Below, in pieces: positions 1-19,360 of a stretch of 24,000 nucleotides of DNA. The notes beneath the pieces were generated by a model. It did no database searches, had not been told where the DNA came from, and saw only the letters and a list, made by a program, of their open reading frames with translations. The DNA is from Acaryochloris marina S15 (GTDB lineage: Bacteria; Cyanobacteriota; Cyanobacteriia; Thermosynechococcales; Thermosynechococcaceae), in assembly GCF_018336915.1 (NCBI RefSeq), contig NZ_CP064923.1, forward strand, positions 4,625,372-4,649,371, in the 5' to 3' direction. A program made the translations under genes and the position numbers. Positions within the stretch are counted from its first letter, which is position 1. Each line of letters begins with the position of its first letter.

Positions 1-857
1 CTTAACCGAGCCGATGTTCGAGCTTGATCAGGGGCTAACTGAATCTGCCGCTGCACACTGGTAAAACTGGCATAGGTTTCTCGGTATTGAGCATCTAAAG
101 CCTGTCGTTCAGTTTTGATCCGGTCTAAAGCAGCGGATGCGGTTTGGGCTTGTGTAGCAGGGTCAATCACATTGGTGCCACTGCGAAAAGTCTTCAGGGC
201 AGCCTCTGCTTCCAAAACGCTGCGGCGAACTTCTGGCAATTGCTTATCAATAAACGCCAAACCCTTGGAGAGACGGAGCTTCTGCTGTTCTAGGTTATAG
301 AGTTGATAGACAGATAAGACTGTTTCTAAAATCTGTTGGGTTTTTTCAGGCTGAGTACTGATGTAACTGGCGGCCAAGACCTTTGTTGCGACCTTTCCTT
401 TACCCGTTCGATCTGGACCATATACAGGACTAAAAGACAAAGATGATCGTAGATCCTCAATGGTGATATTTGGATAGTCTGTTTGTAGCCGTTCAACAGC
501 CCTAGACAGAACTTCAGCCCCCGTCAACACTTGCAGTTGTGTCGTGAGATCCACTTGAACATTCGGATCAGCAAACCGATTCTCTGCGGTCTTCGGCCCT
601 AAACCATTCGGTTTGGACTGATAGTTGGACTCCACCAAAAGCTGCATCGTACTTTGATACAGGGGTTGAGTTTTTAAAGTCAGGAAAATAGAGCCTGCCA
701 AAGCGCCCACAAAGGCACCTAGAAACCAAAATTTCCGCCGGATTAAGATCGAAAGCAGATGCCCATAGCCCCAGTCTTTGTCAATGGTTTGGGCAATCAA
801 AGCATCTTGTTGATGCGCAAGCTTATTAGGGGGTTTGTATAAACTGCTTTCAGTCAC
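1..857 (-). CDS. Polysaccharide chain-length determinant (Wzz/GumC/PCP-type) protein, N-terminal part. The 3' end lies beyond the window start.
   Basis: Absent from the ORF track because it runs off the window edge. My minus-strand translation from GTG (857-855) reads VTESSLYKPPNKLAHQQDALIAQTIDKDWGYGHLLSILIRRKFWFLGAFVGALAGSIFLTLKTQPLYQSTMQLLVESNYQ..., and the frame stays open to position 1. A basic stretch, one TM helix and a long coiled-coil-like segment (LEQQKLRLSKGLAFIDKQLPEVRRSVLEAEAALKTFR) fit the Wzz/GumC architecture. The start codon is uncertain: GTG, with an in-frame stop at 873-875 just upstream. Confidence 0.6.
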   Translation of the reverse strand, partial: MTESSLYKPPNKLAHQQDALIAQTIDKDWGYGHLLSILIRRKFWFLGAFVGALAGSIFLTLKTQPLYQSTMQLLVESNYQSKPNGLGPKTAENRFADPNVQVDLTTQLQVLTGAEVLSRAVERLQTDYPNITIEDLRSSLSFSPVYGPDRTGKGKVATKVLAASYISTQPEKTQQILETVLSVYQLYNLEQQKLRLSKGLAFIDKQLPEVRRSVLEAEAALKTFRSGTNVIDPATQAQTASAALDRIKTERQALDAQYRETYASFTSVQRQIQLAPDQARTSARL

Positions 858-867
858 AATCTGTATT

Positions 868-1992
868 TCAACTTATAGAAGGAACAAAAGAATTTTGATT
901 AATCGTTTGAGCGGGATAAATTTGGTTAATAACTTGATGGATTTTTTGAAAGAAGACGGGTTCGGAAAAGTGTGACAGGGCATGGTTTCGAATGTATTGA
1001 TAGTCCCATTCGATCTGTTGCGATCGCACGAGTGCTGCCTGCAGAGATGAGGCTGTTTGTTTATTGAAAAACACACCCGTCTGGCCTGGAACTTGGGTAT
1101 CGAGTACACCACCCGCACCAAAAGAAACCACTGGCGTTCCGCTGGCATTTGCTTCAACGGGAACCAAACCATAATCTTCTAGGGCTGCCACGACCACTGC
1201 TTTAGCTTTGGCCATCAGATGACAGCGCTCTGCATCAGAGATATATCCTAGAAATTCGACGTTTGATTTAGCTCGACGTTCTAAATGCTCCCGTTCCGGG
1301 CCATCTCCCATAATCTTCAAAGGCCAACCCAACTGATTAAACGCATCAATAATAACGTCAACACGCTTATAGCCCAACAATCGGGCAGATACTAAGAAAA
1401 AATCTTCTTTTTGGTCCGAAAAAGAAAATTTAGAATTATCAATTGGATAGTTGACTACAATCGCTTGCTTACTATAAGTCGATTGGATACGGCCGGCGAC
1501 TTCAGTCGAATTAGCAATATATAGATCGGGCTCTTGGGCATAGGCGAGATCAGCCTTCCTCATGACCCGAAACATTTTCTCGATAAAAGGGTAGAGATGC
1601 TGATAGTCTGCATACTCTCTCAAATAGGTTTGGGTGTCCCACAGAAAACGAGTGATGTTATGGCAAAAGCAGATATGTTTTGCATCCGATCGGGTTCGCA
1701 CCGCTTTAGCAAAGCTGGTGCTACTGCTAATAATTAGGTCATATTTCTGTAAATCCAACGCTCTAAAAGCTGGATAATAGAAAGGAGCCAACAGCCTAAA
1801 ATACTTGGTTGCCCCTGGTAATTTCTGTAAAAGAGTTGTATGAACAAGTCGATCGCCCAACTCTATCGTTTGTTGTGGATCGTATAGAGAAGTGAATATA
1901 TCTGCACTGGGGAAGTGACGACACAACAGCTCGAAAACCCTCTCAGCGCCTCCGCGTTGGGTTAGATAGTCATGAACTAGGGCAATCTTCAT
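868..1992 (-). CDS. Glycosyltransferase family 4 (GT-B fold, group 1)
   Basis: 374-aa ORF with an ATG start. The N-terminus MKIALVHDYLTQRGGAERV and the C-terminal EDYGLVPVEANASGTPVV region are typical of group-1/GT4 enzymes. Its stop lies 10 nt upstream of the Wzz-like gene start, so it is probably co-transcribed with that exopolysaccharide gene. Confidence 0.85.
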   Translation of the reverse strand: MKIALVHDYLTQRGGAERVFELLCRHFPSADIFTSLYDPQQTIELGDRLVHTTLLQKLPGATKYFRLLAPFYYPAFRALDLQKYDLIISSSTSFAKAVRTRSDAKHICFCHNITRFLWDTQTYLREYADYQHLYPFIEKMFRVMRKADLAYAQEPDLYIANSTEVAGRIQSTYSKQAIVVNYPIDNSKFSFSDQKEDFFLVSARLLGYKRVDVIIDAFNQLGWPLKIMGDGPEREHLERRAKSNVEFLGYISDAERCHLMAKAKAVVVAALEDYGLVPVEANASGTPVVSFGAGGVLDTQVPGQTGVFFNKQTASSLQAALVRSQQIEWDYQYIRNHALSHFSEPVFFQKIHQVINQIYPAQTINQNSFVPSIS

Positions 1993-2450
1993 AATTCGTT
2001 CGTACTTTAGCTGCTACTTCACCAGGACCCTTTGTTCAATTTTTAGAAATCACACGGATGTGGAGGAATAGGCTAGACAATATCATGAGCTTGACGATAC
2101 AACACTTCGTAAAAGGATACCCTAAACATGAGAATTATTGCTTTATAAAGATGACAGAACCCAATTCAATCCATAGCGCAGCTACTTCACTGTTCACTGC
2201 ATGGGTTATCTATTCTATAAAACTTCAATCTCAATATTCTCTGAAGAAAAGAAGCTAGGAATTCTCAATTTTTCTTTCAGCAATAGTCTCTCTTTCAACG
2301 CATGAGGGAGAATGATGTTTAAAGGTATTAGAAGTAAGTGAAAGTCCTGGGAACTTGGCCCAATTAGCCCACTTGCACCCCAGCAGGTTAAGTATAGCGT
2401 GGCATTTTTCCCCTCGCCAGATAATTTAGAAAGTTTTTCGTTAGTATCGG

Positions 2451-4265
2451 TTATCGATAGTTCTGAGCTTGGGTTTCAAACATCGATGCATAGACCCCAT
2501 TCAGGTTCATCAGCGTATTATGATTACCTTCTTCAATCATGTGACCTTGTGACATCACATAAATATAGTCCGCCATCTTAACTGTCGACAATCGGTGACT
2601 AATCAAAATGGCGGACTGATCTTGTATGAGCTCCCGAAACTGTTGGAAAACCTCATACTCAGCTTTGGGGTCCATTGCACTGGTTGGCTCATCCAGAACA
2701 ATCACTTGGGAATCTCGAAGAAAGGCACGAGCCAAAGCGATTTTCTGCCACTGCCCAATACTGAGTTCTTCTCCCTGATCAAACATCTTGCCTAAGACAG
2801 TATCGTACCCTTGAGGTAACGACTGGATCACTCTATCGGCCCCGGATAGTTGAGCCGCCGATCGGATTCGATGCTCATCGGCAGGTCTCTCAATATTCCC
2901 TAACTGGATATTCTCTCGGGCAGTGAAATGGTATTTAGCATAATCTTGAAAGATGACGCTGATATGGCTTTTCAGCTCAAGCTTGCTAAAGTTTTTGAGA
3001 TCAATCCCATCAATTGTGATATTCCCTTCAGTAGGATCGTAAAGCCGACAAAGTAGCTTAATTAATGTCGTTTTGCCAGAACCATTTTCACCCACTAAAG
3101 CAATGACTTGTCCTGGCTGAAGCTTGAGAGAAACATTGTGAATAGCTTGACGCTGGGTCGTTACATATTGAAAGCTCACATTATTGAAGGCAACTCCAGT
3201 GGCTAAACTCCCTGGAAAAGGCTGCGGGCATTCTGGCTCCAAAACTTTTGATTCTATATCTAAAAACTCGTATAGATTCGCAAGGAACAAATTATCCTCA
3301 TAAAGTCCAGATAGACTCCGTAACAAACCCTTCAGACTATTTTGGCCTTTTTGCAGTGCCTGATAGTAGAGAACTAAATCCCCTAATTTGAGCACTCCCA
3401 ACAAAGTTTGTTGGACCATATAGACAAAGATGGCAAATACAAACAGTCCTGCAATTACCTGGGCTCCAAAAAAGGCAAAGGATCGTTTGGAAACTATGCC
3501 TACTTTTTCTTTATAGATTATTTCCCGTAACTGGGAATATCTGTGTTTGAAATGTTCTCCTAAGTTAAATAGACGAATTTCCTTGGCAAACAAATCGCTG
3601 GTTTGTAACCACCCCAAATACATCGCCTGCCGTTCCAGCTGAGTACGACGACGCTTCCAGTGGTACATCACCCCTGCAAACTTCATCCGCACCAACACAG
3701 TCGGAATAGCAGCAACAAACAAAATCCCCACAATGCTCCAATGCAAGGCTAATAACAATCCCAACATTGCGATCAGTGAAATTGAACTTTGCCCGGCCAA
3801 GGCTAACCGATCCAGGATACGGGGAGGGCGATAGGGAGCCTCTTGTTGTGCCCGCTGCAAGGCATCATAATACTGGGCATTTTCGTAATACTCTAAGTCG
3901 GCTGAAATAGATTTAGAGTGGATAATGCCCTGCATATAATCCGTGACCCGCTGAGCATGAGCAATGGTAACCAAGTCCGATAGCGAGGCAAAGAAGGTCG
4001 TACTAATCGTCAAGCAAGCGGCAACAACCAATAAAGGAACGATATCGTTGATCGCTGATGCCCGGTTAGAGAGTGCTAAGCTAATCGTCACTTGGTCGAC
4101 AATCAGCTTAGTCATATAAATGGAAAATAAGGGTAGGATGCCCTGAATGATGACCAAGCCAATGCGCGCCAAAGTCCAGTTAGGACCGCTTTGCCAAACC
4201 AATTTCAAAGCTGGTATGAAGTGCAAGGGACGTTTGAATCTTGCTTTGATAAATCCAGTCAGCAT
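2451..4265 (-). CDS. ABC transporter, fused permease/ATPase; predicted lasso-peptide exporter/immunity protein (McjD-type role)
   Basis: 604-aa ORF with an N-terminal multi-helix permease half. Walker A is GENGSGKTT, the ABC signature is LSIGQWQKIALARAF and Walker B is VIVLDEPTS. It lies directly downstream of the precursor genes on the same strand. Confidence 0.85.
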   Translation of the reverse strand: MLTGFIKARFKRPLHFIPALKLVWQSGPNWTLARIGLVIIQGILPLFSIYMTKLIVDQVTISLALSNRASAINDIVPLLVVAACLTISTTFFASLSDLVTIAHAQRVTDYMQGIIHSKSISADLEYYENAQYYDALQRAQQEAPYRPPRILDRLALAGQSSISLIAMLGLLLALHWSIVGILFVAAIPTVLVRMKFAGVMYHWKRRRTQLERQAMYLGWLQTSDLFAKEIRLFNLGEHFKHRYSQLREIIYKEKVGIVSKRSFAFFGAQVIAGLFVFAIFVYMVQQTLLGVLKLGDLVLYYQALQKGQNSLKGLLRSLSGLYEDNLFLANLYEFLDIESKVLEPECPQPFPGSLATGVAFNNVSFQYVTTQRQAIHNVSLKLQPGQVIALVGENGSGKTTLIKLLCRLYDPTEGNITIDGIDLKNFSKLELKSHISVIFQDYAKYHFTARENIQLGNIERPADEHRIRSAAQLSGADRVIQSLPQGYDTVLGKMFDQGEELSIGQWQKIALARAFLRDSQVIVLDEPTSAMDPKAEYEVFQQFRELIQDQSAILISHRLSTVKMADYIYVMSQGHMIEEGNHNTLMNLNGVYASMFETQAQNYR

Positions 4266-4592
4266 AAACGGCCATTTGACAATGCATAGTGCAGAATTAT
4301 CCTAACGCTGTACGAACACACTCAGCGAGAGAGGTGAAAAACATGGCCAGCCCTAGTCAAAATCCTGGGTCATAGGATGGAGCTGATCTGCCAGATCGTT
4401 CACATTTCAATAATGAGGTCGAAGTCTTAGGGAGACTGCCTTACACCCCAGAGAAGCAAAGTCGTCATCCATATGGCTAAGCTGAAAAAGCCTGCATCCG
4501 AACAGCAAGGACTCATTCAGCAACACTGAAACCGTTGATCTTAAACAGGCCGTTATCGAGGAGATGCAATGTTGTGATCTGTTTTAGCTCAA

Positions 4593-4667: not shown

Positions 4668-4808
4668 CTATGACGTTACATCATCAATATCACCGGCAGG
4701 AATCGTCCCAAAAGGCACATCTGTCGCATTAAATGACGGTGAATTCTTAGTCATATCTTCTACGCTGCCATACACCTTCAACTGAGGTGCACCATAGGAT
4801 CTTTTCAT
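4668..4808 (-). CDS. Lasso-peptide precursor, copy 2 (46 aa): MKRSYGAPQLKVYGSVEDMTKNSPSFNATDVPFGTIPAGDIDDVTS
   Basis: Hand translation of the minus strand: ATG at 4808-4806, TAG at 4670-4668. AAGGAG (4826-4821) lies 12 nt upstream of the ATG. The leader matches YxxPxLx3Gx5Tx exactly (Y5, P8, L10, G14, T20). It sits between a lasso cyclase and an ABC exporter. A paralogous copy lies 334 bp away and differs mostly by silent substitutions. Confidence 0.8.
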   Translation of the reverse strand: MKRSYGAPQLKVYGSVEDMTKNSPSFNATDVPFGTIPAGDIDDVTS

Positions 4809-5001: not shown

Positions 5002-5142
5002 CTATGACGTTATATCATCAATATCCCCAGCAGGAATGGTTCCAAATGGCACATCGATAGCATTCACCGATGGCGCATTCTTTGTCATATCTTCTACGCT
5101 TCCGTAAGCCCTCAATTGAGGTGCATCATAAAATTTTTTCAT
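5002..5142 (-). CDS. Lasso-peptide precursor, copy 1 (46 aa): MKKFYDAPQLRAYGSVEDMTKNAPSVNAIDVPFGTIPAGDIDDITS
   Basis: Hand translation of the minus strand: ATG at 5142-5140, TAG at 5004-5002. AAGGAG (5160-5155) lies 12 nt upstream. It has the same leader motif and the same Asn1/Asp9/C-terminal Ser architecture as copy 2. Confidence 0.8.
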   Translation of the reverse strand: MKKFYDAPQLRAYGSVEDMTKNAPSVNAIDVPFGTIPAGDIDDITS

Positions 5143-5432: not shown

Positions 5433-7406
5433 CTATTGCGTGGATTCTGCAAAATTGGAGCTTAGATTAGCTTGTTGTAGCCAAAGAATCAAGTTAACGG
5501 CAATCCAAATCAGTAAAGTGTCGTTAGCTTCAGCATGTCCTGTGTGCCATCGATTGACTAGGTTAGTCAGCTCTTGCATATCAATAAAGTCTGCAATGGC
5601 ATCAGGAGGATGACTGAGGACCTGGTGGATCAAGTCCGTACCGTATTTCTCTAGGGTATGGTCAAACGCTGTGCCCAAATTTCCTTTCCCTGCGCGCCAC
5701 TGAATTTGGGGAGGAAGAATACCTTCGAGTCCACGTCTGATAATCAACCGAGTCCAACCATTTTGCATCTTCTGCTCCTCTGGTAGAGAGACACAAAATT
5801 CTACTAACCGCTTATCCCAAAAGGGAAATCGCAATTCAATTTGGGATGCGGCGGCTGTTCGATCCATCACTTCTAGGGTCGAAGAGACTAAGCCAGACGT
5901 AACATCAACGATATGTTCATGACGTTGAGATGGTTGTGCGCCAAAGCGCTGACGACGCAACTGTTTATAGCGCTGTAGCACTGATGCCCGATCGATAAAG
6001 TCTGGGCTAAGGGGAATGGCCCAAGGCATTGCTGGAGCTGCCTGTGATGCACTAGGGTCTTGCTGTCCACGAGATTGCCAAGTGTTGACTTTACGAATAA
6101 TTTTGGTGATCTTTGTCTTCTTGAGGAGGGGGTTGATGCCAAATTTACGGACATAGGACCGATACAGTGGCCATAAGTCGTAACCGAAGCTTTGACAAAA
6201 CCCGCTCATCTCGCGCCATAACTTGAGCCAATGTCCCGCTTTGGCAAGGGTGCGCAAATACCCTACTCCATGGGATACCGCCTGATCACCATCAAAGCCA
6301 TCCAATAACACCCGGACGGATTGGCCCTGAGCGATTTGATATAAGGCATGGGTTAAGTGGGAGTTACAGGCAAATAAGGGTTCGTCTTGAAGGGCCAACA
6401 TCTGCTGATAATCTGTCCAGGGTCCGAGTTGATCTCCCTGTACATACTGAGGCTCGATAGGCCGCTGATGAACCACTGCATTAATGAATTCCTGTTCATC
6501 AGATGCCGTTATTTCATTAAACACGGCAGAGAAGGTGGGGAATTTAGCGGTCTCTTGTGCCTCCTGTCTCAACTGGGCAGTCATACAGGTGATGGAGGAG
6601 GAGTCAATGCCACCACTTAACATCGTGCCCACGGGAAATGCACTTCTGAGGCGACAGCGCACTGCTTCGGTAAAAATAGCTTGAAACTGTTCAGCATAGG
6701 CTTGATCGGACTCAAGCTGTAGTTCAACGTCAGGATCGAGAGACCAGTAGGATGAGATGTCCAGATTGTTTTTGCTCACCGTCATCCGGTGAGCAGGAGG
6801 AAGTCGCAGGATCTGCTCATAGAAGGTCATTTCTGAATCAAACAACATGAGGGTCAGATAGTCGGCGACTCTGGTTTCATTTAAGGCTTTAGGCACTTCT
6901 GGCAGGTGAAACAGCGCTTTCATTTCGCTTGCAAAGGCAAACACCTGTTCAGAGGCATAGTAAAAGAAAGGCTTGACCCCAAAATGATCGCGGGCACAAA
7001 ACAAATGCTGTTGAGTGGCATCCCAGAGGGCAAAGGCAAAGTCACCCAGGAGAAATTCAGGACATTGTTCACCCCATTTTTCGTAGGCAGCAAGAATGAG
7101 AGCGCTATCGGTAATAACTTCGGATGTAGGCTGTTCCAGGCCCAACTGGGTCATCAGATCAGCACGATTATCAATCCGCGCGTCGGCAGTGAGGACTAAG
7201 GTTTGGGAGGCATTGCTGAGAGGAGGCGTTTCAAACCGGGATTCTGGGGTTGTCTGTAATAAACAATGGCCGAGGCCAACCTGATCTTGACTCCATATAT
7301 TTGTCCCATCCGGTCCCCGATGGGACAGAGATTGGACCATTTGATGCAGATGATCAATCCCCCCAGGATGAGGGTGAGGATAAACAAAGCCAGTAATTGC
7401 GCTCAT
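5433..7406 (-). CDS. Lasso-peptide cyclase (asparagine synthetase B-like, McjC-type)
   Basis: 657-aa ORF. The PP-loop ATP-pyrophosphatase motif is MLSGGIDSSSIT. The N-terminus is MSAITGF rather than the MCGI of true AsnB, so the glutaminase Cys nucleophile is absent, as is typical of lasso cyclases. The gene is flanked by other lasso genes. Confidence 0.9.
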   Translation of the reverse strand: MSAITGFVYPHPHPGGIDHLHQMVQSLSHRGPDGTNIWSQDQVGLGHCLLQTTPESRFETPPLSNASQTLVLTADARIDNRADLMTQLGLEQPTSEVITDSALILAAYEKWGEQCPEFLLGDFAFALWDATQQHLFCARDHFGVKPFFYYASEQVFAFASEMKALFHLPEVPKALNETRVADYLTLMLFDSEMTFYEQILRLPPAHRMTVSKNNLDISSYWSLDPDVELQLESDQAYAEQFQAIFTEAVRCRLRSAFPVGTMLSGGIDSSSITCMTAQLRQEAQETAKFPTFSAVFNEITASDEQEFINAVVHQRPIEPQYVQGDQLGPWTDYQQMLALQDEPLFACNSHLTHALYQIAQGQSVRVLLDGFDGDQAVSHGVGYLRTLAKAGHWLKLWREMSGFCQSFGYDLWPLYRSYVRKFGINPLLKKTKITKIIRKVNTWQSRGQQDPSASQAAPAMPWAIPLSPDFIDRASVLQRYKQLRRQRFGAQPSQRHEHIVDVTSGLVSSTLEVMDRTAAASQIELRFPFWDKRLVEFCVSLPEEQKMQNGWTRLIIRRGLEGILPPQIQWRAGKGNLGTAFDHTLEKYGTDLIHQVLSHPPDAIADFIDMQELTNLVNRWHTGHAEANDTLLIWIAVNLILWLQQANLSSNFAESTQ

Positions 7407-7426: not shown

Positions 7427-8644
7427 TTAGGAATGAGAAGTGGGTTCAATCTCTTTAATCATGAGAAATCCCTCTTGAATCAAGTTCTGAGTTAAGGACA
7501 ATCTGCCAGCATCATTAATCAAACCACCAATATCTTTTATGGCCAGACAGGAATGGTCGATCAGATCGGTCAGGGAAGCCGCTAGAAAGATAGGAAAGGT
7601 TAGGCTTTTTTGATAGAAGTTCAAAATAATTTGGGTTGAACTTCTATCAACTGAAAATAGGATATTGGGCCTACGGGCAACGACAGAATCGAGATTGAGC
7701 TGTGGCAGATGGATCAGGTCTTGGAAGCGGCCTTGGTCTTCTGATTTGCGATCGCACAAAAATACCCCATTCTTCCGCTCCACCAATTCTTTGGTCTTCA
7801 CCCTATTCATTAAGGACTGGCTCAGGGTTTGAAACGATTCATCAAAAGCCTGCTGTTGCTCAGAACTGGAAAAACCGTGGGGAATCGCTTTCCGAAAGGC
7901 CGGGTCAGCCTGGGCAATGGTGACCAACTCCTCCAAGAGTTCGTAAGCAAAGGTGGGATATAACCCTAGGGATGCGTGGACTGAAGTGGTTTCTTGACTG
8001 GCCGCTTGATGGACCACACCCCGAGGAATATAGAGCAAATCACCAGGCTGGAGCATTACCGTTAACTCTGGCTCAGCCAGTTCATGGCGGCCAATACTTT
8101 GATCTCTGATGTGAGAGGGTAGCTCAACGGGGGAATGGTAGAGTTTCCATTCTTTCTCCCCGGTGATTTGGAGAATAAACACATCATGTTCGTCGTAATG
8201 AGGTGCTAAACCCTGGGCTTGGGGGGGCGTGATGTAGATATTGGTTCGGAGCTTAAACTTCAGCTCGCATTCTAGGGCACTACAAAAGTGTCGCAGCTTG
8301 GGAATTTTCTTGTGGGCCCCGTTGATGGTCAAGGTTAAGCCCTGGTGCAACAAGCTATACAGCTTGTCATTGTCAATAAAATATTGTTGGGATTTAGAGT
8401 GGCGTTCGCACCAGTCTTCCAGACTTAGCTTATTGCCCTGATCCACTAGGCGGAAGTTATTGTAATCCGCCAACAAAGCTTTGTTTTGCAGCAGTAGATC
8501 GATGTCGCCTGGATCTAGGACCGACCCATAAAAAAAGGCATCATTCCTGGGCAAATGAAGCGTTTTTGCTTCCCAATAGGTCTGGAAAAAATCTTCAATC
8601 GTGCAGGGAGCGATTAAACGGGCAAACTGAGACTCAACCTTCAT
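7427..8644 (-). CDS. JmjC/cupin-4 family Fe(II)/2-oxoglutarate oxygenase (RoxA/YcfD-like peptide or protein hydroxylase)
   Basis: The facial-triad context is GLAPHYDEHDVFILQITGEKEWKLY (HxD), LLYIPRGVVHQA, and the distal His in TSVHASLG. The track starts the ORF at a TTG (8665). I prefer the ATG at 8644-8642, which overlaps the kinase stop (CATGAAGGTTGA) by 11 nt. Confidence 0.75.
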   Translation of the reverse strand: MKVESQFARLIAPCTIEDFFQTYWEAKTLHLPRNDAFFYGSVLDPGDIDLLLQNKALLADYNNFRLVDQGNKLSLEDWCERHSKSQQYFIDNDKLYSLLHQGLTLTINGAHKKIPKLRHFCSALECELKFKLRTNIYITPPQAQGLAPHYDEHDVFILQITGEKEWKLYHSPVELPSHIRDQSIGRHELAEPELTVMLQPGDLLYIPRGVVHQAASQETTSVHASLGLYPTFAYELLEELVTIAQADPAFRKAIPHGFSSSEQQQAFDESFQTLSQSLMNRVKTKELVERKNGVFLCDRKSEDQGRFQDLIHLPQLNLDSVVARRPNILFSVDRSSTQIILNFYQKSLTFPIFLAASLTDLIDHSCLAIKDIGGLINDAGRLSLTQNLIQEGFLMIKEIEPTSHS

Positions 8645-9539
8645 GGGCCAGGATGTGATTTTCAACTAGGGTAGCAATGTCCGGCAGTAAATCTAAGGAA
8701 GCTGGTCGTAGAAGACGCAAGAGAGGCACCTGTTGAGCCAGTATCATCAGTTGCTTAAAATGGCTGGCCCCTCGCTCCTGCAATAAAGTTTGCTCAAAGC
8801 GGGTGACATAGGAGTTTTGCATCAAATGTTGAATAATCTCCTGGGGCGGCAACGGCTTAATGGCGACTTCGTCTCCTTGCCCCAGCACAAAAATATATCT
8901 AAGAGGCAGAATGTCAGCCATAAAGCCCGAAGAGAGCTGATGATTCCGTTTTTCTAAGCGGGCACCTAATCGCGGCAAATCTTCGGGTTGCTTGCCAATG
9001 CAAGCGACGGCATCTGGCCACAGCTTAATTTGAGGAAAGGCAGGTTGCACCTGAATTTGATGACGTTGGATTTCCAGGGCCACCACATCATCCGCAATTA
9101 AGCTATGGCCTCGATCATGCAAGGTAGCTGCCATCGTGGATTTGCCCCACCGTTTTTGACCGATAAAGGCCACGGCTTCGCCTTCTAAGGCCACAGCGCT
9201 GGCATGGAGGACCAAAAATCCTCGTTGGTGCAATACGACCCCCATCACCGCGCCTAGAATAAACAGGCGAAGGCGATCCTCATCCAGATCGATCTCTAAA
9301 TCAATCAGGACATCTTGCCCTTCCTGAATCAAAAACGTCCCCACTCCCTGCCAATATAAATACATCCCCGCATCTGTATTTTGATAGCAATGCAGGGTGT
9401 TTTCGGTTTGCAAAGGACTATCGGTAATGGCACCAAAATGAATCCAAACATCCGCATCAGTTGCCAGGGTAGAGATCAGTTCTGGCAGTTGAATTTCAGA
9501 CTGTAGGGTCAAGCCATAGGCTGAGTAAAAGTGGGACAT
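8634..9539 (-). CDS. HPr kinase/phosphorylase-like protein; predicted lasso-precursor Ser kinase (paeninodin PadeK-type)
   Basis: 301-aa ORF. Walker A sits in the HprK-like context LHASAVALEGEAVAFIGQKRWGKSTMAATL. The gene is embedded in a lasso operon whose precursors end in Ser. Confidence 0.7.
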   Translation of the reverse strand: MSHFYSAYGLTLQSEIQLPELISTLATDADVWIHFGAITDSPLQTENTLHCYQNTDAGMYLYWQGVGTFLIQEGQDVLIDLEIDLDEDRLRLFILGAVMGVVLHQRGFLVLHASAVALEGEAVAFIGQKRWGKSTMAATLHDRGHSLIADDVVALEIQRHQIQVQPAFPQIKLWPDAVACIGKQPEDLPRLGARLEKRNHQLSSGFMADILPLRYIFVLGQGDEVAIKPLPPQEIIQHLMQNSYVTRFEQTLLQERGASHFKQLMILAQQVPLLRLLRPASLDLLPDIATLVENHILAHEG

Positions 9540-9672: not shown

Positions 9673-10602
9673 CTACCGTGGGTCCATAGGCAGGATTTTC
9701 TTGAGGTTGGACTTGAGTTTTTTCAGGAACGGTTGAGCGGATTTAGGGGAGTTGGCAGTAAACAGCTCATAGATTAACTGTTCGAATAGCGGATTGGGCA
9801 CCATGGGGTCTGGGTGAATCATGGCATCTAGGTCCAAATTAAAGGTCGGCAACTCATTCAGACCTTGGTTTCCTTGGGTATGACTGCCTTGAGTACCAAT
9901 ATTAGAAACCAGATTGACCTTGGGCACCACGGTAAGACCATTCTGGGCAAGACAAGAATAAAACCACGGAATATCCCAAACTTGTTGGTTTTGATAAGCC
10001 CAGTCAAATAATTGGGTAACCCAATCTGCTAGGGCTGGCTGCGGAAAAAATTGGGCCTGTCGATACTGAGGCCAGCCCGTCATTTTGAGGTCGTAGCATT
10101 GCCAAGCCCTGCGCCAAGAGGCCCATCCCCAAGACACAAAAAATTTAGAAAACACATAGGTCTGGGGAATCGGTAAGGTATCTCCCAGAAAATTACTGCC
10201 GGAGATAGTCATCACTTGAGATAGATGACGGTACTGGGCCAACATGGCTTGGCAAAAAGGGAAAAAACTGGGATGGGGAAGACAATCATCTTCTAAAATG
10301 ATCGCTTCTTCCACCTGAGAGAACACCCAATCCAACCCCTGGGCATTGCAACACCGCCCCCCAAGATTCGAGTCTGAAAAATGGGTGAGCACCTCGCACT
10401 CCCAATCCACTTGATCGACAATGGCTCTAGCTTGCTGGCATAATTTTTGGTCCTCTGGAACATCAGCTCTCGGGCCATCTGCAACGATTAACAAAGCTTG
10501 TGGTTTGGCCTGGGCAATCGCGGCAAACACCTGACTGGAATATTGAGGGCGATTGAAAATATGAAACGCAACGGGAGTGGAAAGGGGCATCAGGAGTGCC
10601 AT
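9673..10602 (-). CDS. GT-A-fold glycosyltransferase (GnT-I/GT13-like, 'HlpA-like' family)
   Basis: 309-aa ORF. The N-terminus is VAFHIFNRPQYSSQVFAAIAQAKPQALLIVADGPR. The acidic motif ILEDDCLPHPSFFPF resembles the EDDLEVAPDFF motif of GnT-I. No sulfotransferase PAPS-binding motifs were seen. The assignment rests on remembered family signatures only. Confidence 0.55.
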   Translation of the reverse strand: MALLMPLSTPVAFHIFNRPQYSSQVFAAIAQAKPQALLIVADGPRADVPEDQKLCQQARAIVDQVDWECEVLTHFSDSNLGGRCCNAQGLDWVFSQVEEAIILEDDCLPHPSFFPFCQAMLAQYRHLSQVMTISGSNFLGDTLPIPQTYVFSKFFVSWGWASWRRAWQCYDLKMTGWPQYRQAQFFPQPALADWVTQLFDWAYQNQQVWDIPWFYSCLAQNGLTVVPKVNLVSNIGTQGSHTQGNQGLNELPTFNLDLDAMIHPDPMVPNPLFEQLIYELFTANSPKSAQPFLKKLKSNLKKILPMDPR

Positions 10603-10620
10603 GGAAGAAGAAGCGGAATT

Positions 10621-11229
10621 TCAGACAAACCAGCTGACAATCGAGAAGCGCTCACCATAGGTGACCGGTTTAACTTCATGCCAGAGATCGGATCGAAACG
10701 CAATCAGTTGACCTTGTTCAGGCTCCAGAGGGAAGCCATAGTTTTGACCGCGAGCATCATCAAGTAATCCATAGAGGGCTAAGGCTCCGCCCCCAAAGGT
10801 CTGAGGACTAGGCTCAGCGGACATACTGTTGAGGAAAATAATTAAAGACACCAGTCGATTTTTTTCAAACTTAGAGCCCGGTAGGCTCGGATCGATGACA
10901 TCTCGATGAAGGCCAAAAAAGTCGCCCACTTGATAGCGATAGCAGGAGGGGGGTTCTAAGTCCTGGAGTTGGACCTGGAAATGGGTTTCTAATCGCGGCT
11001 TAATAGCAATTAAGCGCTCACGAATGCTCTGGGCCGTGGTTTGACTTATTTGCAACTGGCCCGTTTTTCGTCGACTATTGTCGGTCACAGCCTCACCATA
11101 TCTTGTGAGGCGAGCGGGCTCACAGGGGCAGGTCTGTGCTTCCGTGAGGTAGGACTCACAAAATTGTGGATCTAAAAAGCCGGGGTCAACAAATACCCCC
11201 AAGCGTTCAAAAAAAGCAGCGCTAGGCAT
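10621..11229 (-). CDS. 2OG-Fe(II) oxygenase, prolyl 4-hydroxylase-like
   Basis: 202-aa ORF. HxD is in DFFGLHRDVIDP. The distal His and the 2OG-binding Arg are in LIAFRSDLWHEVKPVTYGERFSIVSWF. It ends 18 nt upstream of the GT-A gene. Confidence 0.8.
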   Translation of the reverse strand: MPSAAFFERLGVFVDPGFLDPQFCESYLTEAQTCPCEPARLTRYGEAVTDNSRRKTGQLQISQTTAQSIRERLIAIKPRLETHFQVQLQDLEPPSCYRYQVGDFFGLHRDVIDPSLPGSKFEKNRLVSLIIFLNSMSAEPSPQTFGGGALALYGLLDDARGQNYGFPLEPEQGQLIAFRSDLWHEVKPVTYGERFSIVSWFV

Positions 11230-11299: not shown

Positions 11300-11758
11300 T
11301 TAGATCTTGGAATCAAATGATGGCATTGGTGTAAAGCGGGATAAGTCATTCACAAAGCCCATGATCACTTGCCCTTGCAACTCAACCCAGGCATGGGCTT
11401 CTAGAGAATGGTCTTCTGCTTTAGCAACCCCAATTTTTAGCTCGGGTTCATAGCCTCGCCGACAAATTAACACTTGAGTGACGAGGGCTCGAGCTAAACA
11501 TTTCACCTTTCCTGGCATAAAGCGGCTGCTGGTGTTCACTGCCCAGACCACTTTACCTACGGTCCTACGACTAATCTTAGTCAGGGTAGGCGATTGATAG
11601 TAAGCAGACGTTTGGTGAAAGTTGACCAGCCATTTTTGCAGGATTTTGAAGGGTAGCAACCACAACCCCAATCGAACCAAGCCCAAGAGAACGTAGGTTT
11701 TGATCAGGAGGGTGCGATCGCAACTTCGCAACCGCAAAAATTTAAGCACTGGCGACAT
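11300..11758 (-). CDS. Lasso-peptide leader protease B2 (transglutaminase-like cysteine protease)
   Basis: KCLARALVTQVLICRRGYEPELKIGVAKAEDHSLEAHAWVELQG carries the Cys and His (AHAWVE) signature of lasso B2 proteins. The track ORF starts at a TTG (11770). The ATG at 11758 is more likely, and either start overlaps the end of B1. Confidence 0.85.
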   Translation of the reverse strand: MSPVLKFLRLRSCDRTLLIKTYVLLGLVRLGLWLLPFKILQKWLVNFHQTSAYYQSPTLTKISRRTVGKVVWAVNTSSRFMPGKVKCLARALVTQVLICRRGYEPELKIGVAKAEDHSLEAHAWVELQGQVIMGFVNDLSRFTPMPSFDSKI

Positions 11759-12047
11759 CTTTGATCTCAATCAATTCCGATTCAGCCATCTCATTTAGCA
11801 ACCTCATGACATCTTGTTCACACTGGTCCGACCCAACTTCGTATTGATCTAAAATTTGGTCGCAGATATCTTTAACCGATCGAGGTTGCTGAAGTAAATT
11901 CCAAACACTTGCACCCACTTCATTCAAACCGAAGTACATTCCTGTCTTCAGGTTGAGGATAACTGATTCCCCGGCTAAGTCAGATGAGACTTGCTCTGGG
12001 GTCGCAACAACCGTTGTATTCGTTGAAATAGTGGTAGTCAAACTCAT
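11742..12047 (-). CDS. PqqD-family RiPP recognition element (lasso B1)
   Basis: 101-aa ORF. DLAGESVILNLKTGMYFGLNEVGASVWNLLQQPRSVKDICDQILDQYEV...DVMRLLNEMAESELI follows the PqqD pattern (GE.vll....g.yf.LN..g..iW.ll), and the gene overlaps B2. Confidence 0.85.
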   Translation of the reverse strand: MSLTTTISTNTTVVATPEQVSSDLAGESVILNLKTGMYFGLNEVGASVWNLLQQPRSVKDICDQILDQYEVGSDQCEQDVMRLLNEMAESELIEIKDVASA

Positions 12048-12236: not shown

Positions 12237-13439
12237 TTACCTTTTTGAATTGCAGAATTTTTCAACGCAACGCACAAAGATTTCCACTCCCATGGCTAAA
12301 GCAGTCTCATCAAAATCGAATTGGGGATGGTGGTGGGGATAGGCTAATCCTCGCTCGTCATTGGCTGAACCCAAAAAGAAGTAGCAACCTGGAACTTCTT
12401 GCAAAAAGAAGGACATGTCTTCCCCTCCCATGGTTTGACAGTTGGGAACCACACCTGTTGGTGTTTCAATCACTTCAGTACTGATGGAGCGTACTAAATC
12501 TGCGATCGCAGCATCATTTATCACAGGTGGATACAGTCGCCAATACTTTAAGTCGTAGGTGGCTCCCCAACTTTGACAAATCCCCGTCAGGATATCCTGC
12601 ATACGCGGCTCAATCAGATGGGCCAATTCTGGGTCAAAGTAGCGAACCGTGCCGCTCATAAAGCTGGAGTCGGCAATCACATTAGAAGCTGTGCCCGCAT
12701 GGAGTTGTCCGATGGTCACCACAGCTGAATCGAGGGGATTGACATGGCGAGCCACAATGGCTTGGAGGGCGTTGACGATTTGAGCGCTGATCACCACTGC
12801 ATCCGTGGTTTGGTGAGGCATGGCGCCATGTCCCCCCTTGCCCTGAATCTTGCATTCAAATAGATCCACGGCAGCCATCAGCGGCCCTGATTTGACGCCA
12901 ACGGTGCCGAGGGGGAGATTGTTCCATAAGTGCAGGCCAATAATGGCATCAACTTGCGGGTTTTGCAGAACACCCGCCTCAATCATGGGCTTGGCCCCAC
13001 CCGGAGATTCTTCAGCAGGCTGGAAAATGATCTTGACCGTACCGGCAAAGTCTTGGCGATGTTGAGATAAATAGCGGGCTGTTCCCAGAGCAATGGCCGT
13101 ATGTCCATCATGGCCGCAGGCATGCATGACCCCATCGTGGCGTGACCGATAGGAAACCGTATTCTCTTCCTGAATGGGCAAGGCATCTATGTCTGCCCGA
13201 ATCGCTAACACTGGCCCCGGTTGTGCCCCAGAGATCGTGGCCATGATACCCGTTTCAGCAATGCCTGTTTGATGGTCAATGCCCCATTCTGTTAAGCGCT
13301 GAGCTACAAATTCAGCAGTGAGATGCTCTTTGAATCCAAGTTCTGGATATTGATGCAGATGCCGTCGCCAAGAGACTAAATCCAGTTGTTGGATATCTGA
13401 GCGAATGGAGGTATCAGAATGAGGAGGAGAAGAAACCAT
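12237..13439 (-). CDS. M20/M25/M40-family amidohydrolase (N-acyl-L-amino acid amidohydrolase / hippurate hydrolase-like)
   Basis: 400-aa ORF. WRRHLHQYPELGFKE, MHACGHDGH and FQPAEE are characteristic of the ILR1/AmhX-type M20D subfamily. Confidence 0.85.
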   Translation of the reverse strand: MVSSPPHSDTSIRSDIQQLDLVSWRRHLHQYPELGFKEHLTAEFVAQRLTEWGIDHQTGIAETGIMATISGAQPGPVLAIRADIDALPIQEENTVSYRSRHDGVMHACGHDGHTAIALGTARYLSQHRQDFAGTVKIIFQPAEESPGGAKPMIEAGVLQNPQVDAIIGLHLWNNLPLGTVGVKSGPLMAAVDLFECKIQGKGGHGAMPHQTTDAVVISAQIVNALQAIVARHVNPLDSAVVTIGQLHAGTASNVIADSSFMSGTVRYFDPELAHLIEPRMQDILTGICQSWGATYDLKYWRLYPPVINDAAIADLVRSISTEVIETPTGVVPNCQTMGGEDMSFFLQEVPGCYFFLGSANDERGLAYPHHHPQFDFDETALAMGVEIFVRCVEKFCNSKR

Positions 13440-14713: not shown

Positions 14714-15613
14714 TTAGATAGAAGCATAGAGCTGCTCTGCCAGGATAGAGATCTCATCTTCCATCGTTAGTAACTCTAGCCAATGGCTAGGTATACCCTG
14801 CACACCATAAAAAGCACCTGCCAATTGACCACAAATAGCAGCCGTAGTATCAGCATCATCCCCAAGATTGGTTGCTTGCAGAACCGCCTGTGCAAAAGTT
14901 TCTGTGGTCCAGAAACACCAAAGAGCCGCTTCTAGACTATCTACGACATAGCCAGAACCTCGAATATCTTCCAATGTTTTGCTTTGATAATCTCCCTTGG
15001 CTATAGCTTGTATCGAAGGAGAAATTATACCTGCTGGTTCTTGCTCCATAAGGATTTCAACTTTGCCAACTCCTGATAAGGCGCGAAAGAGCATATCACC
15101 AAATAATTGGCTGGCCTCAATACATTCTGTAGCCCCATGAGTGGTACGCGAACTTTCACCACATAGATACAAGGTGCGATCGCGATCTGGGTAGCAGAAC
15201 ATAGGTACTGGGGCCAATCGCATCAAACACCCATTCCCAGCTGATCTAGGGTGAGTAGAGCCACTGAAAAGGATATCTGTAGTCTTGTATTGCTCTAAAG
15301 CTTGCCTAACAGTATTTCCAATATCGAAACAGTCACCTGTACTGCTGAGATAGCCTTTTTCATACCAATCACAGTAGCGATTCATCTGATCTGCCGCGTC
15401 AAATTTACCTTTTTGAATCAGGCTAGTGGCAAGACATAAGGCCATTGAGGTATCGTCCGTCCATTGTCCTGGTTGCAGATGAAACGGACCGCCGCCCACC
15501 ATATCGGTGACGGGGGCAAAGGTTCCTCGCGGCTGAAACTCTACCGTTGTCCCAACGGCATCACCGACTGCCAACCCCAGTAAACATCCTCTGAATCGTT
15601 CGGATATATCCAT
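14714..15613 (-). CDS. ADP-ribosylglycohydrolase family protein (ARH/DraG-like)
   Basis: 299-aa ORF. The N-terminal RFRGCLLGLAVGDAVGTTVEF and the C-terminal LGDDADTTAAICGQLAGAFYG are the two metal-binding signature regions of the ARH family. Confidence 0.85.
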   Translation of the reverse strand: MDISERFRGCLLGLAVGDAVGTTVEFQPRGTFAPVTDMVGGGPFHLQPGQWTDDTSMALCLATSLIQKGKFDAADQMNRYCDWYEKGYLSSTGDCFDIGNTVRQALEQYKTTDILFSGSTHPRSAGNGCLMRLAPVPMFCYPDRDRTLYLCGESSRTTHGATECIEASQLFGDMLFRALSGVGKVEILMEQEPAGIISPSIQAIAKGDYQSKTLEDIRGSGYVVDSLEAALWCFWTTETFAQAVLQATNLGDDADTTAAICGQLAGAFYGVQGIPSHWLELLTMEDEISILAEQLYASI

Positions 15614-17969: not shown

Positions 17970-19360
17970 CCAACCATAGCTAAAAGCTTGGTTGGTGGTG
18001 TAGCGGAGTGTGACTGAAAGAAACAACCCTTCGGCAAAGCTCAGGAGCCTAAGTGCAGTATCTACACAGTAAATAGTATTATGTAGGCATGCTTAACATG
18101 ACCTGGGAATTCAAACTAGAACCCACTCCTGAGCAAGTTATAGAGATTGAACACACCTTAACGGTGTGTCGAAAAGTCTGGAACTTTGCTTTGCGTGAGC
18201 GTAAGGACTGGCTTAATTCTCGTAAATGCTCAGTGAATGCTTGTTCTCTTAGGCATGAGTACATCATGTCAGGTGATGAGCCATTTCCTAGTTATCACCT
18301 TCAAGCCAAACGTTTAACCCTTGCTAAGAAAAAGATTGCCGAACTCAAAAGCGTCAATGCTCAAATGCTTCAGCAAGTCTTGAGACAACTGGATGCATCC
18401 TGGGAGCGTTGGCTGACCAAGCAGTCGGGTCTACCTAGATTCAAAAACCAAGCTCGAATGCGAAGCTTTGTATTTCCTCAGATGCTCAAGCATCCTCTCA
18501 GTGTAAGAGGCATCAAGCTTCCGCAACTGGGCTGGGTCAAAGTGAGATGGTCTAGAGATATACCCCAGATATGCGAAGTCAAACAAGCTCGTATTGTCCG
18601 TAAGGCGTCGGGGTACTTTGTCATGTTGAGTTTACAGGCTGATGTGGATATTCCAGAGGTGCCCTTTCATGGCCATCCGGTGGGAGTTGATGTGGGATTG
18701 GAATACTTTCTATCTACTTCAGATGGCTTACAGATCAAACATCCTCGCTTTTTTAATGAGTTGCACCGCAAGCTGAAATTGCTGCAACGTAGACTCAAGA
18801 CCAAGCAAAAAGGGAGTACTAACCGGTCCAAACTGCTGAGGAAGATCGCCAGAGCTCATCAACGGATTGCCGACACTCGTAAGGACTGGCATTTCAAGAC
18901 CGCCCATCAGCTTTGTGACCAAGGAGATTCCATCTTCGTTGAAGACTTGGATTTCCGCATAATGGCGAAAGGGTTTTTGGGTAAACACACATTAGATGCT
19001 GGCCTTGGGCAATTCACTAACCAGATCCTTCCTTGGGTGTGCTGGAAGCGTGATGTTCATTATGGCAAGGTTGATCCAAGAGGAACTAGCCAGGAGTGTC
19101 CAGATTGTGGAGCAACGGTGAAAAAGGATTTGAGTGTCAGGATGTCTCACTGTTTAGAGTGCGGCTCAATTAAGCCGAGAGATATTGCGGCAGCTCAAGT
19201 GATTTGTACCCGTGGGCAACGGGGAATAGAAAATGCCTGTGGAGTCGAGGTGACGGGGGGTTCAGTAATGAATTCTAGTCAACTGGCTTTGAAGCAGGAA
19301 ATCTTTGGAGCGATCTAAAGAATCTCCTTGCATACCCGATAGGGCTGCTGGGAGAGGATG
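17970..19360 (+). mobile_element. Solo-tnpB IS200/IS605-type element (approximate extent; ends not resolved)
   Basis: tnpB is wedged between the glgC promoter region and the 3' end of the convergent acyltransferase gene. A strong hairpin at 17970-17995 could be the left-end structure. The right end must lie within about 40 nt after the tnpB stop, because the next gene ends at 19361. The boundaries are inferred, not demonstrated. Confidence 0.35.
18098..19318 (+). CDS. tnpB: TnpB (IS200/IS605-family OrfB; RuvC-type RNA-guided endonuclease)
   Basis: The N-terminus is MTWEFKLEPTPEQ. The RuvC triad contexts are VGVDVGLEYF (D), SIFVEDLDFRIM (E) and RDIAAAQVI (D). The zinc finger is CPDCG...HCLECG. 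The track starts 9 nt earlier, at ATG 18089. No tnpA is present in the window. Confidence 0.9.
   Translation: MTWEFKLEPTPEQVIEIEHTLTVCRKVWNFALRERKDWLNSRKCSVNACSLRHEYIMSGDEPFPSYHLQAKRLTLAKKKIAELKSVNAQMLQQVLRQLDASWERWLTKQSGLPRFKNQARMRSFVFPQMLKHPLSVRGIKLPQLGWVKVRWSRDIPQICEVKQARIVRKASGYFVMLSLQADVDIPEVPFHGHPVGVDVGLEYFLSTSDGLQIKHPRFFNELHRKLKLLQRRLKTKQKGSTNRSKLLRKIARAHQRIADTRKDWHFKTAHQLCDQGDSIFVEDLDFRIMAKGFLGKHTLDAGLGQFTNQILPWVCWKRDVHYGKVDPRGTSQECPDCGATVKKDLSVRMSHCLECGSIKPRDIAAAQVICTRGQRGIENACGVEVTGGSVMNSSQLALKQEIFGAI

Follow-up and report, generated by a model that had tools for sequence, protein, structure and literature searches.

A prolyl-hydroxylase-like oxygenase and a GnT-I-like glycosyltransferase as candidate tailoring enzymes of an Acaryochloris lasso peptide

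A 24,000-nucleotide (nt) stretch of the Acaryochloris marina S15 genome (contig NZ_CP064923.1, positions 4,625,372 to 4,649,371; hereafter the window) carries a lasso peptide operon on its minus strand. Two genes in this operon lie side by side: one encodes a 202-amino-acid (aa) Fe(II)/2-oxoglutarate (2OG) oxygenase with the prolyl-4-hydroxylase (P4H)/PHD fold (OXY, 10621-11229), and the other a 309-aa GT-A glycosyltransferase of the GT13/GnT-I-like type (GT, 9673-10602). An earlier note, made from the sequence, had reported an 18-nt spacer between them, and this is what we find (10603-10620). The question raised by this locus is what the two enzymes do to the peptide and, in particular, whether a proline is hydroxylated and then O-glycosylated on its new hydroxyl, as that note proposed. 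Our analysis indicates that the peptide probably receives a hydroxyl and a sugar from OXY and GT; for the sugar-bearing residue we can propose a candidate. In our preferred reading, to which we assign a probability of roughly 40%, the peptide is first hydroxylated and the new hydroxyl is then glycosylated.

Direct family searches with GT were empty, so its identity was resolved only by structure prediction and by alignment of a family member. No Pfam or NCBIfam family was found at E≤0.01, and no PDB sequence match was obtained with the single protein or with a 43-sequence profile. The score against the Pfam GNT-I family (PF03071) was 12.7 bits (E 0.055), below the cut-off of 25.4, and weak matches to the same family were seen in 25 of the 43 sampled members of the GT family (best 6e-6). 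The AlphaFold2 (AF2) model of GT (pLDDT 90.4) has the GT-A fold, and Foldseek matched it to 143 PDB chains at E≤1e-3; the 50 best listed are all glycosyltransferases. POMGnT1 (5ggi, E 3.5e-12, TMq 0.57) ranks first, ahead of GnT-I (1foa, 5.8e-11) and GnT-II (1.9e-8). The closest ones belong to GT13, GT16, GT25 and GT2, and ppGalNAc-T, which we take to be GT27, appears only at about 1e-5. In the model, E104-D105-D106 comes after strand beta4 (99-104). E104 and D106 are invariant in the family and D105 is nearly so; in family member P0023 the segment ILEDDCLPHPDFF aligns with VVEDDLEVAPDFF of GnT-I, with EDD over the EDD of the GnT-I VVEDD.

On the strength of this model and alignment, the description of the 309-aa protein as a GnT-I-like GT-A enzyme with an EDD motif is upheld, and the non-glycosyltransferase family that the earlier note had named as the contrary outcome is not what the structure search returned. 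GT shares with GnT-I and POMGnT1 (GT13) the GT-A fold, the best Foldseek matches and the aligned EDD metal-binding motif. It differs from them in being bacterial, in its sequence identity of 12-15%, in its sub-cut-off Pfam score and in its acceptor, presumably a peptide rather than mannose. By predicted fold GT is thus GnT-I-like, outside the curated Pfam GNT-I family. Its orthologue in A. marina MBIC11017 (AM1_1918) is labelled 'hypothetical protein' in GenBank, so the identification is not trivial.

GT has more than 7900 homologues, some of them named 'glycosyltransferase family 2 protein' at source. The sampled relatives at 47-51% identity all lie in polysaccharide clusters with Wzx, GT4, GT2 and methyltransferase genes. 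The window GT forms one clade with P0002, P0004-P0008 and P0009 (57% identical), and all clade members whose neighbourhood was examined (P0001, P0007, P0008 and P0009) are in lasso clusters. At five positions where the polysaccharide clade has a conserved Tyr, Phe is found in 8 of the 8 sampled lasso-clade GTs; these substitutions would be compatible with an altered acceptor. GT is a clear case of a polysaccharide glycosyltransferase recruited into a peptide pathway, which holds under the rival readings weighed below as well.

OXY matches PF13640 (2OG-FeII_Oxy_3) with 57.7 bits (E 2.4e-15, cut-off 27). Within its H108-R109-D110, H184 and R194 motif, the residues H108, D110, H184 and R194 are invariant among 42 homologues, and the HxD triad marks it as a hydroxylase and not a halogenase. 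For the AF2 model of OXY (pLDDT 92.3), the top PDB match in Foldseek is the EF-Tu prolyl-4-hydroxylase of Pseudomonas putida (4iw3, E 2.5e-12, TM 0.73); further matches are YbiX-like 3dkq, Dictyostelium PhyA (6t8m), a Chlamydomonas P4H (2jig), OGFOD1 (4nhy), PiuC and PHD2. The model has a double-stranded beta-helix that most resembles the prolyl hydroxylases of bacteria and eukaryotes. Family match, invariant residues and structural neighbours agree with the earlier assignment of OXY as P4H-like with an intact HRD...H...R motif.

A metagenome scan for OXY relatives yielded 80 loci, the gene content of which was assessed by tblastn. These relatives (35-47% identity) often adjoin PqqD, B2, cyclase and HPr-kinase-like genes, and neither a GT13-like GT nor a JmjC gene was found in the 80 loci. 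The subfamily is also found in a radical-SAM/C39-ABC locus, beside AAA+ genes, and in loci that combine a Mur-ligase-like gene with several short precursors. OXY is a member of a subfamily devoted to lasso and other clusters for ribosomally made peptides with post-translational modifications (RiPPs) that depend on a RiPP recognition element (RRE). This PF13640 subfamily appears to be a widespread uncharacterised family of lasso/RiPP hydroxylases, whichever reading of the window applies.

In two of the loci with the Mur-ligase-like gene (L031 and L048), that gene codes for a 453-aa protein, several short precursors lie with it and the oxygenase, and no cyclase was seen. The precursors have a lasso-type leader (YQRPELKRxGTLRDVTA) and cores of 8-15 aa, e.g. 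QSTFPVCP and QKTGNTIGGVE; similar precursors occur in L025 and L035. These four loci may represent a different RiPP class.

The operon to which OXY and GT belong has the order B1-B2-OXY-GT-kinase-JmjC-cyclase-A-A-ABC, all on the minus strand. B1 (11742-12047) is a PqqD-type RRE (PF05402, E 2.6e-21; NF033536 lasso_PqqD_Bac, 83.9 bits, cut-off 80), and B2 (11300-11770) is a transglutaminase-like lasso leader peptidase (PF13471, E 1.2e-30; NF033537 lasso_biosyn_B2, E 1e-34). Downstream of GT lies an HPr-kinase-like lasso peptide kinase (8634-9539), putatively of the paeninodin/PsmK type, with matches under cut-off to PF07475 (E 6e-07) and TIGR04352 (E 1.6e-08) and with precursors that end in Ser. 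Its gene overlaps by 32 nt with that of a second hydroxylase, which is JmjC/ribosomal-oxygenase-like (7427-8665; PF08007, E 3.2e-31). The lasso cyclase C (5433-7406; NF033535 lass_lactam_cya, 892 bits) is followed by two precursors of 46 aa each, A1 (5002-5142; MKKFYDAPQLRAYGSVEDMTK followed by NAPSVNAIDVPFGTIPAGDIDDITS) with the YxxPxLx3Gx5Tx leader motif and A2 (4668-4808; MKRSYGAPQLKVYGSVEDMTK followed by NSPSFNATDVPFGTIPAGDIDDVTS), and by the ABC exporter D (2451-4265; PF00005, E 7.3e-34). The locus therefore has the features by which a lasso biosynthetic gene cluster is recognized, namely a B1 RRE, a B2 peptidase, an asparagine-synthetase-like cyclase and a precursor whose leader shows YxxPxLx3Gx5Tx and whose core has Asp at position 7-9.

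The genes of the operon overlap or are separated by short gaps, and no terminator-like site was found in the 133-nt spacer between GT and the kinase gene. In comparison with the A. marina MBIC11017 orthologues, the ratio of nonsynonymous to synonymous substitution rates (dN/dS) was 0.063 for OXY, 0.119 for GT and 0.03-0.15 for the other operon genes; all operon genes are maintained by purifying selection. OXY and GT are co-transcribed members of the Acaryochloris lasso operon. The window proteins are identical or near-identical to those of assembly GCA_021497025.1, and the cyclases of the window and of A. marina MBIC11017 share 89% identity. When genome contigs were scanned with the cyclase, the sole matches were in A. 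marina MBIC11017 and at an unrelated Chitinophagaceae locus.

In the cores of both precursors, positions 3, 11 and 16 are Pro and the last residue is Ser, which confirms the three prolines previously reported as conserved in both core copies. The cores contain five Asp and two Asn and no His or Arg, and they end in a conserved ...D[IV]TS; ring closure is predicted from D9 to N1. Pro is present in all related cores, and in 7 of the 10 OXY-linked cores it stands at +1 or +2 after the ring Asp. In the mechanism that we propose, OXY would hydroxylate the precursor, most likely on a Pro of the conserved loop D-V-P-F-G-T-x-P. GT, as a presumably soluble, metal-dependent GnT-I-like GT-A enzyme that would have been recruited once from a polysaccharide-building family, would then transfer a sugar from a nucleotide sugar, possibly UDP-N-acetylhexosamine (UDP-HexNAc), onto a peptide hydroxyl. 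Our best guess for its acceptor is the hydroxyl made by OXY. In this mechanism, Pro as the site of hydroxylation, the sequence of the two steps, the atom that accepts the sugar and the sugar that is donated are all our inferences.

Given the canonical Thr at -2, the predicted cores start with Asn, which gives an N1-D9 ring. The cores of related clusters (L018, L050, L071, L079, L096, L103 and L104) start with Gln, Lys or His; all of these first residues, Asn included, depart from the usual Gly, Ala, Ser or Cys.

The pairing of OXY with GT extends beyond the Acaryochloris clade. A second GT-bearing lasso lineage (L100-L102) has the order B1-B2-OXY-GT-cyclase, with GT directly 3' of OXY. Between the two lineages GT is the best conserved protein (57% identity), compared with 47% for the cyclase and 44% for OXY. 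Within the second lineage, the sister cluster L103 is 90% identical in its cyclase and 89% in OXY, and GT is missing. Alignment of the junctions of L101 (2119-3137) and L103 (1778-1852) shows that the GT reading frame is cleanly absent and both spacers are kept, and in L101 GT is flanked by a short direct repeat (AGAAT[TA]GT..ATG). GT is therefore a discrete cassette. The sister clusters with GT (L101 and L102) and without it (L103) provide a natural comparison.

Other glycosyltransferases also occur beside members of the OXY subfamily. The lasso cluster L067 has a kinase-B2-OXY series followed by a GT2 gene (PF00535, 7.7e-31), L040 has the order GT2-OXY-OXY2-GT2, and the cyanobacterial locus L073 has GT2/TPR-OXY. 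These GT2 genes are unrelated to the window GT, and neither L040 nor L073 yielded a kinase in tblastn with that of the window. Taken together, the GT2 pairings and the OXY-GT adjacency favour, at the level of sequence comparison, hydroxylation followed by glycosylation over attachment of the sugar to a phosphate. The earlier proposal of Pro hydroxylation followed by O-glycosylation is still conjectural, and it has gained comparative support from the OXY-GT pair kept at 44% OXY identity and from the GT2 genes beside OXY in L067, L040 and L073.

The L040 locus (1071-4298) lies on a high-GC soil contig. Its OXY and OXY2 both belong to PF13640, a polysaccharide deacetylase adjoins them, and no lasso genes were seen in 5 kb. 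A sister clade of the window cluster (L005-L007 and L099; GT 67-69% identical) has the order OXY-GT-kinase-JmjC-cyclase-A-ABC, and neither B1 nor B2 was found within about 20 kb. In this respect it resembles the B-less lasso cluster of Stanieria PCC 7437 described by Zyubko et al. 2019.

Several known systems bear on the interpretation of the pair. In pseudomycoidin of Bacillus pseudomycoides, a product of the kinase PsmK and of PsmN, a hexose on phospho-Ser is installed by PsmN, which is described only as 'uncharacterized nucleotidyltransferases' (PMC6993621). The window cluster has in common with it a lasso peptide, a C-terminal Ser and an HPr-kinase-like kinase; the added hexose is pseudomycoidin's, and the window has a GT-A enzyme in place of a PsmN-like gene, together with two 2OG hydroxylases that are missing from the psm cluster. 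The family PF14907 (NTP_transf_5), which we take to be that of PsmN, had no match among the twelve window proteins scanned and is not recorded among the genes called in the overlapping locus L001; it is present in L103 (E 1.5e-59) and L104. The davasins of Streptomyces davaonensis are glycosylated iteratively on Ser of the mature lasso by IgtG, a membrane-bound bifunctional polysaccharide-deacetylase/GT2 (PMC11912497). As in the window, a lasso cluster encodes its own glycosyltransferase, for davasins one shown to glycosylate the peptide; however, the window GT is a 309-aa GnT-I-like enzyme paired with a hydroxylase, and IgtG is a membrane fusion. Hydroxylation has its own precedents: RES-701 is a lasso peptide hydroxylated on Trp, and CanE is the Fe/2OG Asp beta-hydroxylase of canucin, which is aided by B1 and targets the C-terminal Asp (PMC9266682). 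CanE hydroxylates a lasso precursor, as is proposed for OXY, but its target is the C-terminal Asp and carries no sugar; the two were compared by description only.

A functional parallel to the proposed chemistry, drawn in the earlier note, is eukaryotic. When Skp1 is modified by PhyA and subsequently Gnt1, as happens in Dictyostelium and Toxoplasma, and also in plant and algal hydroxyproline (Hyp) O-glycosylation, e.g. of CLE peptides, a P4H makes Hyp and a glycosyltransferase glycosylates it. The logic proposed for the window is the same, and OXY has PhyA (6t8m) and the Chlamydomonas P4H among its best structural neighbours. Gnt1 is a GT60 enzyme and the plant Hyp glycosyltransferases belong to GT31 and GT95; in contrast, the window GT is closest to GT13 and GT16 by Foldseek and was not placed in GT60. 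The resemblance to Skp1 is therefore one of analogy and not of homology, so the comparison stands for the functional logic and not for descent.

The operon also encodes another candidate source of a hydroxyl. The JmjC protein has PDB sequence matches to MINA53 (4.9e-30), NO66, YxbC ('putative asparaginyl hydroxylase') and YcfD. Among all loci surveyed, its gene was seen only in the Acaryochloris clade; in L100-L102 the cyclase gene comes right after GT and JmjC is missing between the two, and an obligatory partnership of JmjC with GT was rejected on this ground. With a second, MINA53-like hydroxylase in the operon, a +16 mass shift, which the earlier note suggested as a readout, would not point to the P4H-like gene alone.

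A number of these observations weigh against glycosylation of a hydroxyl made by OXY. The JmjC hydroxylase could supply the hydroxyl instead. Most OXY-bearing lasso clusters are without any GT; among them are the GT-less relatives closest to the window cluster, L104 (B2-OXY-cyclase-A-kinase-ABC-NTP_transf_5), L016 (B2-OXY-cyclase) and L018. OXY therefore needs no GT, and hydroxylation is a stand-alone modification with GT as an accessory cassette. A GT2 gene lies directly beside OXY on only 3 of 105 assessable flanks, which is not significant alone, so we regard GT2 enrichment as suggestive only. The loop motif DVP[FL]GT is also found, as DVPLGT, in L108, where no OXY is present in the visible 9.6 kb; the conservation of Pro is therefore not evidence for Pro hydroxylation, and Pro at +1/+2 after the ring Asp was rejected as an OXY signature in favour of a family motif. 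Moreover, PF13640 enzymes are not all prolyl hydroxylases: the family includes lysyl hydroxylases, and PiuC and YbiX are without known substrates. GT13-type enzymes, and the relatives of the window GT itself, use sugar acceptors. Finally, the GT-less relatives L103 and L104 carry a PsmN-like gene and the Acaryochloris cluster is without it, which fits a replacement of PsmN by GT on phospho-Ser.

That last point belongs to a quite unlikely alternative, in which the kinase phosphorylates the C-terminal Ser, GT adds a sugar to the phosphate in the role of PsmN, and OXY acts independently. Both a kinase and a conserved ...D[IV]TS at the C-terminus are in place for it, and GT-A enzymes such as polyprenyl-phosphate GT2s can glycosylate phosphate oxygens. 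The PsmN-like NTP_transf_5 that follows the ABC gene in the closest GT-less relatives, L104 and L103, and is missing from the Acaryochloris cluster, also agrees with it. Zyubko et al. 2019 noted a recognisable GT in the B-less cyanobacterial lasso cluster of Stanieria PCC 7437 and suggested that it might act like PsmN (PMC6993621). Against a sugar on phosphate stands the history of the L100-L103 lineage, in which GT was gained or lost and the sister cluster keeps its PsmN-like gene: since L103 has NTP_transf_5, GT probably coexists with a PsmN-like gene in that lineage, and gain or loss beside the retained gene indicates non-redundant roles. In addition, tblastn detected no kinase alongside the OXY-GT2 pairs of L040 and L073, and GnT-I-like enzymes use hydroxyl acceptors. 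A further argument, that the second GT lineage has no kinase and the sugar therefore is not on phosphate, was withdrawn, because the kinase of L103 lies downstream of the precursor, past the point where the L102 contig ends.

It is unlikely, too, that GT glycosylates an ordinary Ser or Thr directly (e.g. S4, T14 in P-F-G-T or the C-terminal T-S), as in davasins and glycocins, with OXY and JmjC acting elsewhere. Such O-glycosylation is known from RiPPs and from lasso peptides (PMC11912497). Among the cores seen, all GT-bearing ones of the Acaryochloris clade have the ring sequence N1-[AS]-P3-S4, which is found in neither of the GT-less L103 and L104. Position [TS]14 in P-[FL]-G-[TS], with Pro nearby, is conserved in all related cores, but equally so in GT-less clusters, and direct transfer to Ser or Thr leaves the recurrence of GT-A genes beside the OXY subfamily unexplained. 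The least probable reading, and to us an improbable one, is that GT does not act on the peptide directly and either extends a sugar placed by another enzyme (the GT4 at 868-1992 or one of the host) or serves the neighbouring GT4/Wzz polysaccharide genes. Polysaccharide clusters house all sampled GT relatives of 47-51% identity, mannose is the residue to which GT13 enzymes attach GlcNAc, and GT4 and Wzz-like genes flank both the window cluster and the unrelated cyanobacterial lasso cluster L108. Yet GT lies between OXY and the kinase in every Acaryochloris-clade locus, no polysaccharide genes are visible in L100-L102, and GT falls in a lasso-specific clade of its own that carries distinct substitutions.

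The more specific form of the preferred reading, in which a lasso prolyl hydroxylase makes Hyp in the loop, the GnT-I-like GT-A glycosylates it, and the P4H and GT-A module recurs with GT2 enzymes in L067, L040 and L073, is tentative and we consider it somewhat unlikely as a whole. Literature searches found no Hyp in lasso peptides, no lasso peptide from Acaryochloris, and no bacterial P4H and GT pair or Hyp-glycosylated RiPP. The novelty claimed for a glycosylated lasso peptide was nevertheless overstated: lasso glycosylation by other enzyme types is already known from pseudomycoidin and davasins, and the presence of a GT in a lasso cluster of cyanobacteria had been pointed out in 2019 (PMC6993621). 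Should Hyp-O-glycosylation apply, it would put the first Hyp-linked glycan on record for a ribosomal peptide of bacteria; such a system would be the prokaryotic equivalent of Hyp-glycosylation in Skp1 and in plants and would amount to a tailoring chemistry new to RiPPs. It would also offer lasso engineers a soluble hydroxylase and glycosyltransferase pair for placing sugars at programmable Pro sites.

The surroundings of the operon add some minor observations. A GT4 glycosyltransferase (868-1992, minus strand; PF00534, E 1.6e-20), the cluster membership of which is uncertain, follows the ABC exporter together with a Wzz/BY-kinase-like gene (1-860, minus strand) in all Acaryochloris-clade loci. 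In L108 (1-3045), a 64%-identical GT4 and a similar Wzz/BY-kinase-like gene stand beside an otherwise distant cyanobacterial lasso cluster, and a further GT4 lies directly upstream of B1. In the complete genome CP071717.1 (L001:18718-19840) the GT4 orthologue is in two frames near an A/T homopolymer and is either a pseudogene or the result of a sequencing error; given the homopolymer, we rejected the frameshift as a sign that GT4 is dispensable. Upstream of the operon, an M20 peptidase (12237-13439, minus strand) is encoded on the same strand 190 nt from B1, with an ADP-ribosylglycohydrolase (14714-15613, minus strand) upstream of it; since the L005/L099 clade shows synteny for neither of them, both probably lie outside the cluster. 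About 6 kb upstream of the cluster there is an IS605 OrfB/TnpB-type (Cas12f-like TNB) gene (18089-19318, plus strand).

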